Origin: Bdellovibrionia bacterium
GTDB taxonomy: Bacteria; Bdellovibrionota; UBA1018
Assembly (NCBI GenBank): GCA_045805065.1
Contig: JBJMMA010000259.1
Coordinates: 2,874-66,873 of the forward strand
Reading direction: 5' to 3'
DNA length: 64,000 nt
Part shown: one piece after another, positions 43,550 to 55,061 of the stretch
Layout: every line of letters starts with the position of its first letter
Numbering within the stretch: position 1 is the first letter of the stretch
The notes under the pieces: generated by a model
Told to the model about the DNA's origin: nothing
Database searches by the model: none
Seen by the model: only the letters and a program-made list of their open reading frames with translations
Translations under genes and position numbers: made by a program

Positions 43550-44563
43550 CTACGCCGCGTGGGCGCCAACTGCATCTTCCCGCGCAAAAACGTCTTTCAG
43601 CATCTGACAGGTGAATTCGATCGCCGCCCGCACCGCCGGCGTGTCCGCGATCGCGTTGAGCAGCATGAAGTCGTGAATCGTGCCGGCCATGCGTAACGCC
43701 GTGACCTCCACGTCCGCGTTCATCAGTTTGTGTGCATAAGCTTCGCCCTCATCGCGAAGCACGTCGTTCTCATCCGTGATTAGAAGCGTCTTCGGCAAAT
43801 CCCTCAATAGCTCTGAAGAGGCCCGCATGGGCGATGCGAGCGGATTTTGGCGGGCCGTCTCGTCCGGCAGATAGGCATTCCAGAACCATTTCATCGCTTC
43901 GCGGGTCAGCCAGGGGCCGTCGGCGAACTCCCGGTAGGAAGGAGTATCGAAGTCCGAGTCGGTGACGGGGTACAACAGACACTGGAAAAGAATTCGAGGC
44001 CCGCCCCGCTCTTTCGCCATCATCGCCAACGTCGCCGCCATGTTTCCGCCTGCGCTTTCACCGACGACCGCAAGCCGGGACGGGTCGATCGCAAGCTTCG
44101 TGCTTTGTTCGGAAATGTACCTCATGACCGCATAGGCCTCTTCGATCTGCGTCGGAAACCGCGCCTCGGGCGCGGGAGTGTAGTTCACGAAAACCACCAC
44201 GGATTCGGATCCGACCGCGATCTCTCGGATCAGGCGGTCGTGCGTTTCCTGGTTCCCCAGGACCCACCCACCGCCATGGGTATAAAGGACGACTGGCAGC
44301 GCATCTTTCCGTCTGTCAGGCCGTTCGTCAGGCTGCCCCTCTGGCCTGACAATCCGGACCGAGACTTTGCCAGATGGTCCCACCGGAAGTACCTCGTCCC
44401 GAGCATCGACAGGCAGCTTTCGCACCTTGGCTTCGGCCTGAGCACGATTGAGCACTTCGCGCGCCTGTTCATAGGTCAGTTGATAAATCGGTGGCCCTCC
44501 CAGAGCCTCCAAACCTTGAATGAATTTTCGGGTGTTCGATTCGAGCATCTTCCACTCCTTCAT
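43550..44563 (-). CDS. Alpha/beta hydrolase (HSL/arylesterase-like esterase)
   Basis: Oxyanion 'HGGGW' and nucleophile 'GESAGG' motifs. Confidence 0.75.
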   Translation of the reverse strand: MKEWKMLESNTRKFIQGLEALGGPPIYQLTYEQAREVLNRAQAEAKVRKLPVDARDEVLPVGPSGKVSVRIVRPEGQPDERPDRRKDALPVVLYTHGGGWVLGNQETHDRLIREIAVGSESVVVFVNYTPAPEARFPTQIEEAYAVMRYISEQSTKLAIDPSRLAVVGESAGGNMAATLAMMAKERGGPRILFQCLLYPVTDSDFDTPSYREFADGPWLTREAMKWFWNAYLPDETARQNPLASPMRASSELLRDLPKTLLITDENDVLRDEGEAYAHKLMNADVEVTALRMAGTIHDFMLLNAIADTPAVRAAIEFTCQMLKDVFAREDAVGAHAA

Positions 44564-46756: not shown

Positions 46757-48130
46757 TTAATTCATTGGCGGAGGATTCGACAAGAACTCAGTCATTGTCG
46801 CACCTTGATCCTTGTTCGGCACGATTAAGGTGGCCGTACGCCAGTTCGGCGTCGCCAGGAGATAACGACCGTTACCTAAGCCCGGCGCATAACCCAGACT
46901 CCACCCCGTGGTAGGGGTAGGATAATAATCAGCCCCTGTGTCGATCACGTACTTGGCGACGCTGCGATCATCTGGCTTGGACGAATCAGCAACGACAAGC
47001 CTCGTATCCACAGCCACGAAAACCGCTCTTACGTCCGCAGGATTTGGAATCCCTTTGCCCCCGCTCGAGGAGGAGCTGCCGTAGCCGTGCTCGAAGTAAG
47101 GATAGGCAGGGCGAAAGGAAACGCCACCGTCGGATTCTACTTTTCGGTCAGGCGTGCCCGCGCTGGCGAATGGGTACTTCCACAGGCCAGTGTCCGGAGC
47201 CGTGACTTGGTTCCATTGCGACCACTTGCGCGTCGAATTGGAGAGAATGTAAACTCTAAGATTTTTGATTTCTACACGCGTGTTGGTCGCGGCGTTTCCT
47301 TGAGCCTCGTACAGCGTGTACCATGCGAGCAATCCGCTACACCAGGTAGGACGCTCCCCCGTCCACCAAGATGGGATTGAGCTTCCGGCTGGTGAGTACT
47401 GCGTGATCACAGGATTGTACTGCCAGTCGAACGAAGGATTGATCACCAGCGCCTCGCTTGGAGACGACATGTCTTTCACCACTTGGTCGATTGTCAGCCC
47501 AGTTGAGGAAGTCGACGAAGGCGTTGGACTTGGCTTTACAGTCGGTGTCGGACTTGGACTTGGCTTCGGAGTCACAGTTGGACTCGGGCTCGGAATTGGC
47601 GCGGCTCCACTTGCAAAGCTCCATTTCTGATTGGCACCGGCGCCGCAATCATAGAGAATCACCGGCGTTCCATTTGCGGAATTATTTGCGGCGACATCCA
47701 TGCAGCGTCCACTCGATGCACTCACAAGCCTTCCGTTCGAGAGTGACCATTTTTGAGTTACTGAATTGTTGCAGGTCTTGGAGACGATGGGATTCAAGTT
47801 GGCGCCAGTGCCCTTGATGTCCAGGCAAAGATTGCCAGCACCAGCAAAGCTCTTCAGCTGTCCTGAGGAGTTCAGAACGAAAGACTGATTGCTTCCGCCG
47901 TTACAACTCCAGATCTCAAGCGCCGCGCCAGAAGCAGTGCTGTTAGCAGTGACATCTAAGCATATATTGGTTCCAAGGCTGCTCTTCACTGCCCCTGATG
48001 CTACGGTCGTGACTGCCGCAGCTTTGGCTGGATGGGCGGAGGCGATCAATGCAAGAGCAAGTCCTCCCGACCAGGGCGCAACTCGCTTTAAAAATGCTCT
48101 ACTCTTAATCGCTCTACAGGTTTTCATTTC
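46757..48130 (-). CDS. Secreted ricin-B (beta-trefoil) lectin domain protein with a Pro/Thr/Ser linker and an unknown C-terminal domain
   Basis: Signal peptide from the internal Met 48130. QxW repeats 'NQSFVL', 'TQKWSL', 'NQKWSF' lie around 'CLD' motifs. Linker 'PSPSPTVTPKPSPSPTPTVKPSPTPSS'. The ORF extends to 48178. Confidence 0.7.
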   Translation of the reverse strand, partial: EMKTCRAIKSRAFLKRVAPWSGGLALALIASAHPAKAAAVTTVASGAVKSSLGTNICLDVTANSTASGAALEIWSCNGGSNQSFVLNSSGQLKSFAGAGNLCLDIKGTGANLNPIVSKTCNNSVTQKWSLSNGRLVSASSGRCMDVAANNSANGTPVILYDCGAGANQKWSFASGAAPIPSPSPTVTPKPSPSPTPTVKPSPTPSSTSSTGLTIDQVVKDMSSPSEALVINPSFDWQYNPVITQYSPAGSSIPSWWTGERPTWCSGLLAWYTLYEAQGNAATNTRVEIKNLRVYILSNSTRKWSQWNQVTAPDTGLWKYPFASAGTPDRKVESDGGVSFRPAYPYFEHGYGSSSSSGGKGIPNPADVRAVFVAVDTRLVVADSSKPDDRSVAKYVIDTGADYYPTPTTGWSLGYAPGLGNGRYLLATPNWRTATLIVPNKDQGATMTEFLSNPPPMN

Positions 48131-48440
48131 ATTCCCCCGACAGGAACTGTCTATTCCGTTCCTTATTATCGCACCCAAGCTACAGTAATATCAGCTGTGT
48201 CTCTATCGACCAGTCTCGAAGACGCATAAATTCGCTGAACTTTCGCGAATTAAAGTCAATCTGTATACGCACATAGGCAATGAAATGTTTTGCATCAAAT
48301 CGAGCACCCTCTCCTTGCTCAATAGACGTTGTATAACCGATATCGGACCCCAATCTGACGAGGCCTCGGTGCCTTGCTGGGCCGCTCGCCCCCTTTTCAT
48401 CGCATGATTACCCCCTTGCATCGTGTGGTAGAATAGACGC

Positions 48441-49082
48441 ATGCATACGCAACTTGATCTGCAAGATTTCAAAACGTCTCATCCAGTAACAACTCTTTTC
48501 AGACGCACGCTCATTACCGGAGCAAGTGTCAGCGCCGATTTTTGCGCACCTAGCCCTGGCAAGCGGCTAGGCTGGAAATACGGCGGAAAAGACAGCGTTG
48601 TGACATTGGCTCGGGGAGGTACGCCGGGCCGTGAAACCATTCGACGATTGACTCACGATGACATCGCGGATCGGACAATCGTGATTGCCATCGATTTCTT
48701 CTTCTGGGATTCGACCTCCCATTTGCTCGATGCAAGCCTCACCGCTCTTCAAGACCTCATTGAGTTGTGCAGAAAGCCGGGAGTTCCGCTAATCTTGGGC
48801 GACATTCCGCATCTTCTTCCAGGAATGCAGCCGGGTCGTGCCAAACTAAACGCTGCGATCCACGCAGCAGCCAAGGCATCCAGTCATTGCTCTGTCATGG
48901 AACTCGATGAGCTTCACCGACAAGTGCTTTGTGAGGGAATCGAATTCGGAGGGCGCCGGTATCGACTGACTGATCTTGCGCCCGATGGTTTGCACTTAGC
49001 TGAGGTGGCAGGAAATTATGTAGCTGAACGGCTTTTGGCTACAGTAACCAGGGATTTCACAAAGCTTGCACAACTGGGATAA
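48441..49082 (+). CDS. SGNH/GDSL-like hydrolase
   Basis: Block V-like 'PDGLHLAEVAGNYVAERL' (DxxH) and an N-terminal 'ITGASVSADF' variant of block I. Confidence 0.45.
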   Translation: MHTQLDLQDFKTSHPVTTLFRRTLITGASVSADFCAPSPGKRLGWKYGGKDSVVTLARGGTPGRETIRRLTHDDIADRTIVIAIDFFFWDSTSHLLDASLTALQDLIELCRKPGVPLILGDIPHLLPGMQPGRAKLNAAIHAAAKASSHCSVMELDELHRQVLCEGIEFGGRRYRLTDLAPDGLHLAEVAGNYVAERLLATVTRDFTKLAQLG

Positions 49083-49102
49083 AAGATTCAGGGGTTTTTG
49101 TT

Positions 49103-51004
49103 CTATTGGGTTGAGCCACCTTGTAAAAAGAGCGACTGAAGGCGATTCATCAGCTGAGGGTTATCGATGCCACCGGGCCGGCTCACGCAGCTCTTTATCT
49201 TGTCACGATTGGAAATCTCAGCTTTGATCAAATCACAAGTCTTTTGCCTTTCTCTTGTACTGAGGGGCAACGATAAGCTCATTAATGCCTCTATCCTGAC
49301 CTCGGGCTCATCTTTCGTTTTCTCCACTAAGCATTCAAATTGCGTCTCCCCTAATTCAGGACCGGCAGTTTGGATCTGACTTGAGATCTTTGAAACAGAG
49401 CACGGCCCTTCTAACAGGTTTATCGCTTTTTCCTGAGGATCGTTTTCGACTGCGTCTTTTCTAAGGCGACTCAACATTAGCCAGGTGTTCTTGCGTAGCA
49501 CTGGCCTGCACACCGCTGGGTCTGGTTCTCTCATACATCGCTTGAAGGAAATGCCAGCCACCCATTCCAGCTTAGATTTTTGGATCTCACTCAACGGCCT
49601 TTTGAGATCCTTAATCTCATCCTGTCGATATCGAATCAATGTTTCAATGTTCGATTTGTATCCATAGTCTTTGGGTCGAGTTAATTCGCCGAACCAAGAT
49701 ACCAAGTCTTCATTGCTCCGTGCGTGGCGTATCTTTTTGATCTCAGCATTTAAATTCTCAATTTGCGTATTTATTTCCGTCGGAGTCAGGGCATGAATGG
49801 CGGCGATGACTTCACTCTTTGACTTTTCCAACGCTTCGTCCATCAATTTTTCAACACGTTTTACATTTTCATCATTACAACCTACGAAAGATTCGATTGT
49901 CCTCAGATATCGACTCTGGGAATCCAGCTCTGAACGAGCGTACTCAAATACTGCAAAATGGGTCGCCTTAGTTGCAAGGCTTAACACGTCGGGCGCTTGA
50001 GAAACGAAAGCATTGCAGGGCGAGACAATCTCGTTTCGCTCTGGAGGTCCCAGACAATAGTCGGCCAAGGTCAGATCGAAAGAGCTTTGAGGCAGAATGA
50101 GATATTGCTTAGCTCGCTCCGAGTTGTAAACCGACGACTTCATGACATCGAATAAAGCCAGTGTTCCCTCTTGGTAATGCTTTCTCGCGTTCGAATGCGC
50201 ATCGAGAAAAGACATCCCTTTTTCTAATTCCTTATTGAGATACAGAAGGTAGGAATTTGAATGATTGAGTTGAAGACACTCGGGACGATTATCGCAATTT
50301 TTCTGCTCAATTGCAGACGGAACACCTTTGTAGGCTTCAGGATCGGAAGGCTTTTCATAGTGAATCGAGACTAAACCAACCTGACTTCCAGAGGTTGAGC
50401 TGAACACCTGCACACCTGGAATGTCGGATACTGCGCGTATGGCATTTCCGCCAAAGCACGACAGCGTATTCAAATTAACACGGCCGTTGGGATTCTTCGT
50501 TTTATACTCGAGCAAAGACTTCCGAAGATCGCCTAGTCCAAAAAATTCCACATTTTCAGTAGAAGGAACGAATGCATAAGCAAATCGTACCGGTCCGTTC
50601 ACTTCTTCATTGTCTGTTAACTGGCTCGATAATTCGTCCTGTCGCAGGTAGCTTCTTGGAAAACGACCAGGATCTCCCTCAAGGGGCGATGATTTATCCG
50701 CTTGGTAAACTGTCCCATGAGAATAAATGTGAATGTCCAGTCGATCCACGCCGACTTGATCCGCGATCAACTTCCGCAGTTTCTCCGCGTTATCTCCAGG
50801 CGAGGCCCTGAACTGGATGACCTCATAGCCTTTCTTATAATAGCTCATGGAAGTGAGGTACGCAGAGTGGGCAAAATTCGATTTTAAGTTTCGGTCGTCG
50901 CCCCCATCGACGACAATGGCGACTTTTCGCCCCGCCGTCGCATATTGCGGAAAGCTTACTGTCAAAGCTGTTAAAGCGAGAACAAAAGACCGTAAGCGGT
51001 TCAT
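49103..51004 (-). CDS. Secreted protein with an N-terminal caspase-like (clan CD cysteine peptidase) domain and a large helical C-terminal region
   Basis: Signal peptide. 'KVAIVVDGGDD', a His-Gly dyad 'HIYSHGT' and a candidate catalytic Cys 'LNTLSCFGGNA', in the order seen in caspase/legumain/clostripain-type folds. Confidence 0.5.
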   Translation of the reverse strand: MNRLRSFVLALTALTVSFPQYATAGRKVAIVVDGGDDRNLKSNFAHSAYLTSMSYYKKGYEVIQFRASPGDNAEKLRKLIADQVGVDRLDIHIYSHGTVYQADKSSPLEGDPGRFPRSYLRQDELSSQLTDNEEVNGPVRFAYAFVPSTENVEFFGLGDLRKSLLEYKTKNPNGRVNLNTLSCFGGNAIRAVSDIPGVQVFSSTSGSQVGLVSIHYEKPSDPEAYKGVPSAIEQKNCDNRPECLQLNHSNSYLLYLNKELEKGMSFLDAHSNARKHYQEGTLALFDVMKSSVYNSERAKQYLILPQSSFDLTLADYCLGPPERNEIVSPCNAFVSQAPDVLSLATKATHFAVFEYARSELDSQSRYLRTIESFVGCNDENVKRVEKLMDEALEKSKSEVIAAIHALTPTEINTQIENLNAEIKKIRHARSNEDLVSWFGELTRPKDYGYKSNIETLIRYRQDEIKDLKRPLSEIQKSKLEWVAGISFKRCMREPDPAVCRPVLRKNTWLMLSRLRKDAVENDPQEKAINLLEGPCSVSKISSQIQTAGPELGETQFECLVEKTKDEPEVRIEALMSLSLPLSTRERQKTCDLIKAEISNRDKIKSCVSRPGGIDNPQLMNRLQSLFLQGGSTQ

Positions 51005-51225
51005 GAAGCTACCCTCTGCACGACAAGCGCAGACCCCTCGATTGCTTATCGGAAAAATCGGCAGCTCCCTTAATAGCCTTTAAAATCATGTATCTGCGAG
51101 CGGTGATCTATTGACACGACTGAGCTAGCGACATTTTTTCTACGCTGCCTTCCGCAGATCTCCATCCGGCCCCTGGAGACGCGGCCACAGGTGGAGCAGA
51201 TTCTTTGAGTGGTCGAACCGGCGAC

Positions 51226-51747
51226 TCAACCTGCTGGTCGCAACAATTCTCCCTCGGCCTTTGTATAAATTAACTTTCGCGTGTCAAAATGATTCGCCTC
51301 AAGCCGACGCAGGACTTTGGACAATACCGCTTTTGGCATCCTGGGCTTACGACTCAAAATCCAGAGGTATTTCCGACTCGGCTCGCTGACTACCGAATAC
51401 GAGTAATCAGAAGCAAGATCGATGATCCAATAATCTCCGCGCCCAATTTCCAGCCAGCGCAAAAAACCAGGAACAAAACTTACCTTCAACTTGGCGTGGG
51501 TTCGCAAGTCTGCAACCTCGGCCACTCCCTCCACCGTCTTAAGTCATCGTGTATTCAGCCGTGGCATCGGTGCAGTCTTTCTGAAAAGAATTCGGAAATC
51601 GAGCGATCTCGTACCACTTGCCCAAGTAGCGCGAGAGATCGACCGAAGGAACTGTTTCCAGCTCCGGGGCATCATCGGGTTTTGCACACTACAGGCAACT
51701 GTGATATCGGAATAAAGCGCGCCTGACAGCCCAAAAGCAAGCGCCAT
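51226..51747 (-). pseudogene. blc: Bacterial lipocalin (Blc-like outer-membrane lipoprotein) gene with a -1 frameshift just after the lipobox
   Basis: Frame A (51544..51747) gives the signal peptide and lipobox 'ITVACS'. Frame B gives 'PELETVPSVDLSRYLGKWYEIARF...AKLKVSFVPGF...YLWILSRKP', the lipocalin SCR1/SCR2/SCR3 motifs, continuous to 51226. The frames switch near 51687. A stop (TAG) in frame B lies inside the lipobox codons. Confidence 0.55.
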
Positions 51748-51784
51748 TCAAAGAGGTTCTCCTATTGCACCGCGAATTAAAACC

Positions 51785-53041
51785 ATGGCGCCATCCGTAA
51801 AGCAGGACGAAAAACTCCACTCTCACATAGAAGATCTCCGCGGGACAAGCCGACTTGCCATTGAAGCAACTCAAGGCGTTTGTGATCTTATTGAAGCCAT
51901 GCATGAGACGGTCGCTAAGGGGCCCTACTTGTTAGGAAATCCACTTCAACGCCCAACGCGTACGATCAATCAAATGGTTTACGGAAGCATCCGTTGCGTA
52001 ACAAACCTTGTAGGAGCAAGTATCGATGGTGTCCTCGGAAGACTCACACGGCTTATCGGTCCGGGTCATAGAGTCTCCCGCTCCTCTCAGGAAGATGCCG
52101 TACTTGCAGTGCTCAATGGAGTCCTGGGCGACTATCTGCAGGAGACCGGTAATCCTCTAGCCATCCCGATGCAGCTACGGCACACCGGCGCTCCTCTTGT
52201 GCTCGAGCCAAAGGCGTTGCATGCGGCATTACCGAAGGCAGGCCCCAAACTCCTCCTTTTGGTCCATGGCTCGTGCCTGAGTGACCGACAATGGTCTCGA
52301 CAAGGGCATGATCACGGGGCGGAGCTCGCGCGCGACTTGGGATACACGCCGATATATCTGCACTACAACACCGGCCTCCACATTTCGACTAACGGTCGCA
52401 CGCTCGCCACACTCCTTGATCAGCTTGTCACAGCGTGGCCTGTGCCCCTGGAAGAAATCGCCATTTTATCCCACAGCATGGGAGGGCTCGTGGCTCGTAG
52501 CGCTTGTCACATTGCAGAGGAGCAAAACTATCTCTGGCGAAGGAAGTTACGCGTGGCGATCTTTCTTGGGACACCTCACCAGGGAGCACCGCTTGAGCGT
52601 GTGGGCAACTGGATCGACCATCTCTTAGTCATCAACCGTTACAGTGCCCCTTTCGCGCGGCTTGGTAAAATCCGCAGCGCCGGCGTAACTGACATGCGCC
52701 ATGGCAACGTGTTGGACGAACACTGGCAAGGCCGCGACCGCTTTGCTCATGGCCGCGACACCCGTACACCTTTGCCACTACCAACGAATATTTCCTGCTA
52801 CACGATCGCCGCAACAAAGGGCCCCAAAGGAACGGGAAAGCTACGAAGCGACGGCATTGTCCCCGTGAACAGCGCACTTGGCATGCATAAGTTGGCAAAG
52901 CATAGCCTTGTCTTCCCAGAAACACACCAATGGATCGCCTACGGAACAAGCCATCTCGATCTGCTCAACCGCCACGAAGTCTATACAACGGTCCGGAAAT
53001 GGCTCGAAGCACCCAAGCCAGCAAGCCTACCCAGTGGATGA
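51785..53041 (+). CDS. Alpha/beta hydrolase, lipase-like (PGAP1/EstA-like)
   Basis: 'LLLLVHGS' and nucleophile elbow 'ILSHSMGGLVAR'. Confidence 0.55.
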   Translation: MAPSVKQDEKLHSHIEDLRGTSRLAIEATQGVCDLIEAMHETVAKGPYLLGNPLQRPTRTINQMVYGSIRCVTNLVGASIDGVLGRLTRLIGPGHRVSRSSQEDAVLAVLNGVLGDYLQETGNPLAIPMQLRHTGAPLVLEPKALHAALPKAGPKLLLLVHGSCLSDRQWSRQGHDHGAELARDLGYTPIYLHYNTGLHISTNGRTLATLLDQLVTAWPVPLEEIAILSHSMGGLVARSACHIAEEQNYLWRRKLRVAIFLGTPHQGAPLERVGNWIDHLLVINRYSAPFARLGKIRSAGVTDMRHGNVLDEHWQGRDRFAHGRDTRTPLPLPTNISCYTIAATKGPKGTGKLRSDGIVPVNSALGMHKLAKHSLVFPETHQWIAYGTSHLDLLNRHEVYTTVRKWLEAPKPASLPSG

Positions 53042-53858: not shown

Positions 53859-55061
53859 TTGAACGTCATGAATGGGCGCGCTTTAATGGATTGGTCCAAA
53901 GTTTTAGTTTTTTCATCGCTACTTTTGTCAAACAACGCTCTGTCTGGAGAATGCTTTCGCCAAGTGCCAACCTTCGGTTTTAGCAATTTCAATGATCTTG
54001 CCAATAGCATCGGCGATGCAAAAAGTGAGTTGACCTCCTTTCTACCGGACAAAAAGCTGAGCCGTGATCAGATCGACAGGTTGGCCGCCGAAGCTTCTGA
54101 CGTTGTATACAACCTGTTCAAAACTGCGGGTGACAACCCCGCCAATTCATCACGTATTTTTCCAAACGACGCGATCGTGCCAGTGGATCATTTTACTTCA
54201 GCAGCTGCGCTTGTGGGTGCTCCCATGGGTTATCGAATCGCCGCGAGCTGGAACGATAATGCTCAAAACGAAGCCAAGCGAGGCGTTTTTACCGCGCTTT
54301 ATGAGCCCAATACTTATGGTCAGCCAGTGATATTCGCCTTTAAAGGAACAGTGACACGTGACGATTGGAAAGAAGACCTCTTCCATCAAGGCGGAACTCA
54401 GCTGCAATCGGTTTTTCGAATGCTGAGCCCACGCAATTCGGCCGGCGCGACCGTCTACAAAAGTCTGCTAAAACGCCTGGAGAGTGGGCAAGACGTTTTG
54501 ATCACTGGACATAGTCTGGGCGGTGGCCTTGCTCAAGCCACTGCTTACTTGTTGCAAAAAGATCTCGACGACTATCGCCGTCACGAAATCGCCCAAGGAA
54601 GAGAGCCAAAACCGGGTAATCTTCATCTTGTGACTTTTAACGCACTCGGTGGTCAGCGGACGCTGAAGGTATTTGCTAAGGCCTTCCCTAAAGATCGAGA
54701 GATCACCCCGATCCTCTATAAGGGTACCCGCCTCGAATCCAGTCCAATCGACTCTCAAATCGACGACGCGGCAGTGCTCTCTCTTCAGCCGCGTAACTAT
54801 GCTTATCCAGGCGATCCAGTATCTCCACTTTTCGATCACATTGGTCCAAAATTGATCGTCTCGAAAAAGGAGCCAAAGCGAAAAGTAACGGGCATTGCCG
54901 AAGCATCCGCCCACATGTATACCGCGCTCGGTCGGTTAAGACTTGCAGGAGGGTTTGCGCCAAGCGTTCTGAACTCAATTCACGACAAAGTCTCAGAAGC
55001 CGTCTACGACCATAGCATCAAGCTCATTCGCACGGCGATCGACTCTGATTTCAGACCTTAA
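53859..55061 (+). CDS. Secreted class 3 lipase family protein
   Basis: Signal peptide. 'LITGHSLGGGLAQA' matches the Lipase_3 nucleophile motif GHSLGG. Confidence 0.75.
   Translation: MNVMNGRALMDWSKVLVFSSLLLSNNALSGECFRQVPTFGFSNFNDLANSIGDAKSELTSFLPDKKLSRDQIDRLAAEASDVVYNLFKTAGDNPANSSRIFPNDAIVPVDHFTSAAALVGAPMGYRIAASWNDNAQNEAKRGVFTALYEPNTYGQPVIFAFKGTVTRDDWKEDLFHQGGTQLQSVFRMLSPRNSAGATVYKSLLKRLESGQDVLITGHSLGGGLAQATAYLLQKDLDDYRRHEIAQGREPKPGNLHLVTFNALGGQRTLKVFAKAFPKDREITPILYKGTRLESSPIDSQIDDAAVLSLQPRNYAYPGDPVSPLFDHIGPKLIVSKKEPKRKVTGIAEASAHMYTALGRLRLAGGFAPSVLNSIHDKVSEAVYDHSIKLIRTAIDSDFRP

Follow-up and report, generated by a model that had tools for sequence, protein, structure and literature searches.

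The question raised by this locus is whether the gene at 49103..51004, on the minus strand of the 64,000-nucleotide stretch of Bdellovibrionia DNA analyzed here (the window), encodes a secreted enzyme related to the caspases and legumains, as an earlier note made from the DNA letters had suggested, and, if it does, what kind of enzyme this is. With a probability of about 0.75, we read its product as a cysteine endopeptidase of clan CD that is exported and belongs to a diverged, legumain-like lineage; Cys183 would be the nucleophile and His96 the base, a family-specific insertion would border the active site, and a helical accessory domain would follow. Coordinates are those of the window, and the features of this gene all lie on the minus strand. 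The gene is complete (633 codons plus stop, ATG start, the longest open reading frame [ORF] at the site), and a protein search showed its product to be identical to ACJ763_20200, a "hypothetical protein" from an NCBI metagenome-assembled genome (MAG) of a Bdellovibrionia bacterium. The secreted protein of 633 residues described in the earlier note was thereby confirmed as an intact ORF, and its secretion is indicated by a Sec-type signal peptide over residues 1–24 (50933..51004), which we read by eye: At the N-terminus (MNRLRSFVLALTALTVSFPQYATA, followed by G), a basic n-region precedes a hydrophobic core, positions −3 and −1 are both Ala, cleavage probably falls between ATA and G, and no lipobox cysteine is present. 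In most relatives, too, a hydrophobic leader stands directly ahead of the conserved K-V-A-V-I-V strand and the domain that it opens.

The proposal of a peptidase had started from three motifs, all of which were located in the expected order: AIVVDGG (residues 29–35), HIYSHGT (92–98, containing His96 and Gly97) and LSCFGG (181–186, containing Cys183). When 1.84 billion cluster representatives were searched exhaustively with HMMER at a cut-off of E <= 1e-3, 35 related proteins emerged, 13 of them at E <= 1e-10 and 7 at E <= 1e-30; most are 500–770 aa long, and their common core corresponds to query residues ~20–215. Across the 34 relatives that entered the MAFFT alignment, where mean column identity is 18%, only two columns are invariant, namely His96 and Cys183, and because of this the arrangement of the His and Cys motifs is, as judged from the aligned sequences, not a product of chance. 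The proposed catalytic His and its adjacent Gly97 (33 of 34 members) are encoded at 50714..50719, and the proposed nucleophile, within the motif L-x-C-[FY]-[GS]-G, at 50456..50458. Asp36, just past strand β1 (50897..50899), is Asp in 29 members and Glu in two, which makes it a candidate third catalytic or S1-pocket residue. Further well-conserved positions are Tyr55, Arg114-Phe115-Pro116, Glu124, Gly156-x-Gly-Asp-Leu160, Asn171-Pro172, Gly185-Gly186 and Gln199-Val-Phe201.

An AlphaFold2 model computed from the 34-sequence alignment (mean predicted local distance difference test score [pLDDT] 82.1, predicted template modeling score [pTM] 0.82) begins with β1 (residues 26–33), α1 (41–57), β2 (61–66), α2 (73–81) and β3 (86–94), and continues with a hairpin and extra strands (96–101, 139–145 and 153–156), α3 (157–170), β4 (175–181), a short helix and β5 (198–202). 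His96 follows β3 (LDIHIYS-H) and Cys183 follows β4 (VNLNTLS-C), each two residues beyond its strand. In clan CD the catalytic His precedes the Cys, core strands β3 and β4 lead through a hydrophobic block to the His and the Cys, respectively, at their C-terminal ends, and the Gly next to the His is conserved in all families (PMC4357240); the window protein likewise has a His followed by a Cys at strand ends, a Gly after the His and, in the model, a caspase/hemoglobinase fold, in which about five helices flank a central parallel β-sheet. In a structure comparison, the closest solved structure was human legumain (4aw9_A, score 18.3, root-mean-square deviation 2.3 Å over 194 residues, with ~11% identity in the structural alignment), followed by OaAEP1 (18.1), metacaspase-9 (17.0), PIGK (16.3) and Geobacter GSU0716 (15.8). 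Caspases scored 13–15, MALT1 and a CHAT protease 14.3 each and gingipains 12.5–12.9, whereas C11 enzymes (~9), separase (~8.3) and the best unrelated α/β folds (~7.5) ranked lower. Foldseek against the PDB gave a top 50 made up almost entirely of caspases, legumains, VyPAL2 or PIGK, at probability 1.00 and with target-normalized template modeling scores of 0.5–0.63. As the two comparisons agree, we take the predicted caspase/hemoglobinase fold to be established as far as prediction allows.

A link to peptidase family C13 is provided by the relatives. When the 34 aligned members were scanned against Pfam, Peptidase_C13 (PF01650) was the sole recurring family, with matches in five of them; P0030 (24.1 bits) and P0033 (24.9 bits) exceed its gathering score of 22.8 bits, and the other three fall below it. 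The match of P0029 maps to window protein residues 89–217, which span both His96 and Cys183, and that of P0033 (profile positions 129–244 of 258) maps to residues 152–301. Peptidase_C14 (PF00656) was matched by none of the 34 at E <= 0.1, so that similarity to this family is at the level of the fold only. A search of the family profile against all PDB sequences yielded seven weak matches, of which six are legumain chains (E ~0.8–1.4) and the seventh is YjeQ, and in this search the invariant Cys of the family aligns with the catalytic Cys of legumain (...YIEAC-ESG...). For 29 of the 34 members, neither Pfam nor NCBIfam captures the protein at E <= 0.1, and two pass the curated Pfam threshold. 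Of the checks that the earlier note had proposed, structure prediction returned the caspase/hemoglobinase fold, with legumain as the nearest solved structure, and the profile search reached C13 through five relatives and no clan CD model from the window protein itself. The candidate clan CD domain is supported by the invariant dyad, the C13-matching relatives and the predicted fold together. We place it at residues ~25–312 (50069..50932), closest to family C13 and with a deduced C-terminal boundary.

The peptidase domain carries an insertion of about 45 residues that is specific to the family (residues ~102–150, 50555..50701). Lying between the catalytic His and helix α3, it was delimited by conservation, spacing and pLDDT; R114-F115-P116 and E124, all conserved, fall within it, as does the extra strand 139–145, and its mean pLDDT per 10-residue block is 76–94. 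The His–Cys spacing, 87 residues in the window protein and 75–115 in 33 of the 34 members, falls to 46 in P0029 (333 aa), the sole member without the insertion, whose C-terminal region is also shorter (167 residues with 4 Cys); in legumain the spacing is ~41. P0029 may represent an ancestral, more legumain-like architecture or a truncated gene call. In clan CD enzymes the loop after β3 takes part in building the pockets for the substrate (PMC4357240), and the insertion therefore probably shapes specificity. Also within the domain is the low-confidence loop after β5, in the L5 region (residues 215–247, 50264..50362, pLDDT < 50), which holds a local Cys237/Cys243 pair whose columns are gaps in 28–30 of the 34 relatives. 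We considered this loop as a conserved inter-domain activation linker and rejected it, given these gaps and given that C13 homology runs on to about residue 301.

Beyond residue ~250 the sequence is predicted to be almost wholly helical. The helical nature of the ~380 aa that the earlier note had set apart as following the peptidase domain was therefore borne out, but their extent was not, as the first ~60 residues (~250–312) most likely belong to the peptidase domain and leave a separate domain of ~320 aa. This all-helical domain (residues ~313–633, 49106..50068) has a conserved cysteine skeleton (C317, C330, C376, C490, C535, C558, C590 and C606), presumably disulfide-bonded, and is retained in nearly all full-length members. 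It has no specific structural relative in the PDB, and a search of its profile against PDB sequences found nothing. It was also tried as a legumain LSAM/death-domain fold, which was rejected for want of structural similarity to the AP/LSAM region.

How far other explanations account for these observations can be weighed from the same evidence. A His-Gly/Cys pattern that fell by chance on a generic α/β domain of flavodoxin- or Rossmann-like type, unrelated to clan CD, is scarcely credible, contradicted as it is by the invariant dyad, the C13 matches of P0030 and P0033 and the fold matches. Raptor and c-FLIP are themselves among the fold matches and illustrate that the fold can be non-catalytic, so a catalytically dead scaffold used for binding has precedent; that only the His and the Cys are invariant in 34 sequences at ~18% identity, with the Gly in 33, is however the signature of selection on catalysis, and we regard a dead scaffold as very unlikely. 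Another possibility is that the enzyme is no hydrolase but works as a transpeptidase or ligase, its thioester intermediate being resolved by an amine as in OaAEP1, VyPAL2 and PIGK, in which case it might attach or cyclize envelope proteins or peptides. The resemblance to these enzymes is one of fold, which cannot tell ligases from hydrolases; no conserved partner-subunit or substrate genes stand beside the peptidase gene, and clan CD enzymes are mostly hydrolases (PMC4357240). We consider a ligase improbable.

The helical domain could instead be a true pro-domain, making the protein an exported zymogen with a capped active site that is activated at the prey by cleavage or by a change in pH or redox state. 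This would refine the endopeptidase reading, not replace it. The whole-chain pTM suggests that the two domains adopt one fixed arrangement in the model, nearly every full-length member retains the domain, and legumain, the gingipains and the MARTX cysteine peptidase domain must each be processed at sites outside the core sheet (PMC4357240). Yet there is no structural similarity to the AP/LSAM region of legumain, no conserved cleavage motif was identified, and loop 215–247 is not a conserved activation peptide, given its gapped columns at 237 and 243. On balance, we consider a true pro-domain less likely than not.

The distribution of the family bears on its biological role. Wherever a member has an organism name, its source is a Bdellovibrionota MAG, namely the present Bdellovibrionia bacterium, two Bacteriovorax sp. 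and one Bdellovibrio sp., and every member is labeled "hypothetical protein" or has no name at all. The family is rare: Each of the 90%-identity clusters that were looked up contained only 1–4 sequences out of ~15 billion. The 34-sequence alignment offers no stretch conserved enough for a pattern scan; a seven-sequence N-domain alignment, scanned against 185,579 species genomes (GTDB), found two loci, both in Bacteriovorax MAGs, and an N-domain alignment scan of 241 million metagenome records found a single contig, encoding the already aligned P0007. Word-indexed homolog searches with the single sequence, the full alignment or the N-domain alignment returned only the window protein itself or P0006, and no paralogs of the peptidase gene were found within the window. 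The literature searched, on legumains and cysteine proteases of Bdellovibrio and on legumains in bacteria, yielded no account of the family. Two of the relatives probably share one contig: P0006 (333 aa) covers query residues 4–271, P0019 (302 aa) covers residues 346–630, and the largest ENA contig is 10,432 bp for both; most likely a frameshift or an assembly error has divided a single gene of the family.

Exported or hydrolytic genes surround the peptidase gene between 43550 and 55061 of the window. They comprise an Abhydrolase_3 esterase (43550-44563, minus strand), a ricin-B-lectin protein (46757-48178, minus strand) whose linker is rich in Pro/Ser/Thr and whose C-terminal half is unannotated, a PGAP1-like α/β hydrolase (51785-53041, plus strand) and a class-3 lipase (53859-55061, plus strand). 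At the locus of the relative P0025, the neighbors are an S8 peptidase, a lipoxygenase, a PLD-family protein and an M15 peptidase. These hydrolase neighbors are weakly suggestive of a hydrolytic arsenal. As the organism-named members are restricted to predatory Bdellovibrionota and hydrolases stand beside the gene at two of the loci examined, the likeliest biological role, which is speculative, would be in predation.

It should be noted that several observations count against an exported legumain-like endopeptidase of predatory bacteria. The window protein has no Pfam (E <= 10), NCBIfam or PDB-chain sequence match, and PF01650 in particular is not matched even at E <= 10; as read from the sequences, its link to C13 is transitive only, through the relatives. 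An hhalign comparison of the N-domain profile with legumain and caspase-3 sequences was weak (probabilities of 6% and 1%, respectively) and serves as a register check only. The Asn/Asp S1 pocket of legumain is zwitterionic, formed by Arg44 and His45 on helix α1 and by Ser216 and Asp231 on loop L5 (PMC4357240). Between residues 36 and 55 of the window protein, a stretch that includes much of predicted helix α1 (41–57), no residue is conserved in at least 60% of the members, so that no counterpart of Arg44/His45 is apparent there and Asn/Asp specificity cannot be assumed. The zymogen comparison with legumain would likewise be an analogy only, as the C-terminal domain is unlike LSAM. An organism name is attached to only five of the 35 representative clusters, the rest being metagenome contigs. 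Finally, tblastn of seven window neighbors against three family loci (L001–L003) found nothing, and the gene lists at five other family loci are unrelated; the neighborhood is not conserved and gives no functional clue.

With these points counted, the exported endopeptidase remains our preferred explanation, and it would work as follows. After export by Sec to the periplasm or out of the cell, Cys183 would act as the nucleophile and His96 as the general base, the His standing where the third core strand of the predicted fold ends and the Cys where the fourth does, as in all clan CD enzymes, and the P1 residue of the substrate would be the main determinant of cleavage. The insertion after the His (R-F-P...E) and Asp36 would probably shape the substrate cleft, so that specificity need not be the Asn/Asp preference of legumain. 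The helical domain would be an integral accessory that either keeps the enzyme inactive or stable until activation, comparable in this respect with the unrelated C-terminal domain of legumain, or recognizes substrates. The enzyme could then cut envelope or periplasmic proteins of the prey or of the predator itself during predation. A bolder version is in our estimate doubtful. In it, these proteins would form a separate clan CD family, confined to the predatory Bdellovibrionota and deserving an entry of its own in MEROPS or Pfam, with the RFP...E insertion and a new helical domain rich in disulfides as its hallmarks and with a non-legumain specificity, and they would be used to attack or remodel prey proteins.

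The gene itself is probably transcribed on its own, because an intergenic region of ~220 nucleotides lies upstream and a convergent gene downstream. A Shine-Dalgarno-like GAGGG, read directly from the sequence, stands 7 nucleotides 5′ of the ATG (51012..51016), at the end of this intergenic region, and no match to a sigma-70-type promoter was found on the minus strand. The convergent 213-aa ORF (48441-49082, plus strand) ends 20 nucleotides from the peptidase stop codon; it has no Pfam match, and by eye it shows SGNH/GDSL-hydrolase-like motifs (GASVSAD ... GDIPH ... DGLHL). Upstream, a lipocalin (Blc-like) gene (51226-51700, minus strand) is apparently broken: ORF 51226-51534 matches positions 55–145 only of the Pfam Lipocalin_2 profile (E 1.8e-24), and the in-frame sequence before it (...RFPNSFQKDCTDATAEYTMT) stops at a TAA at about 51539-51541. 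This could reflect either a pseudogene or an error of MAG assembly or sequencing. G+C content is 0.486–0.491 over 48001–52000, against 0.54–0.57 at 42–48 kb and 0.541 at 52–54 kb, and is again near 0.49 at 54–56 kb and 58–60 kb; the low values around the peptidase gene could mark recent acquisition or just local variation.

With their precise, P1-specific cutting, clan CD peptidases serve in signaling, toxin activation and virulence, and they also supply protein-engineering tools such as the legumain-type ligases. The present exported member, which current annotation pipelines overlook, combines a new insertion bordering the putative active site with an accessory domain that is likewise new. 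Most hydrolytic enzymes of predatory bacteria are still uncharacterized, and to them it would add a candidate effector that may have a new specificity as a protease. It does not represent a new catalytic principle, and we rate its value as moderate. The case also illustrates that exhaustive profile searches combined with structure prediction can recover families beyond the reach of curated models.

Among known systems, legumain (MEROPS C13, PF01650, human structure 4aw9) is the nearest in structure, yet at an identity of ~11% and for a protein that matches no Pfam model. The window protein differs from it in its longer His–Cys spacing, with the inserted residues after the His, and in lacking a conserved pair between residues 36 and 55 to correspond to the Arg-His pair of the Asn/Asp pocket (PMC4357240). 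The C-terminal LSAM of legumain is death-domain-like and ~110 aa long, whereas the cysteine-rich region of ~320 aa found here is dissimilar. Unlike legumain, the family of the window protein is bacterial, with its organism-named members in predatory bacteria only. The metacaspases and bacterial orthocaspase-like proteins (C14B; AtMC9 8a53, AtMC4 6w8r, Geobacter GSU0716 3bij) share the fold, but the sequence signal favors C13, PF00656 being matched by no member. The gingipains (C25) and the clostripain/PmC11-type enzymes (C11) are, as the window protein is proposed to be, exported bacterial clan CD His/Cys peptidases with accessory C-terminal domains, and they act on extracellular or host proteins (PMC4357240, PMC4850288). 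Enzymes of this kind are familiar, and bacteria that secrete clan CD peptidases are no rarity; what is new is an unannotated lineage whose insertion is distinctive, whose second domain is unclassified and whose named members all belong to predatory bacteria.
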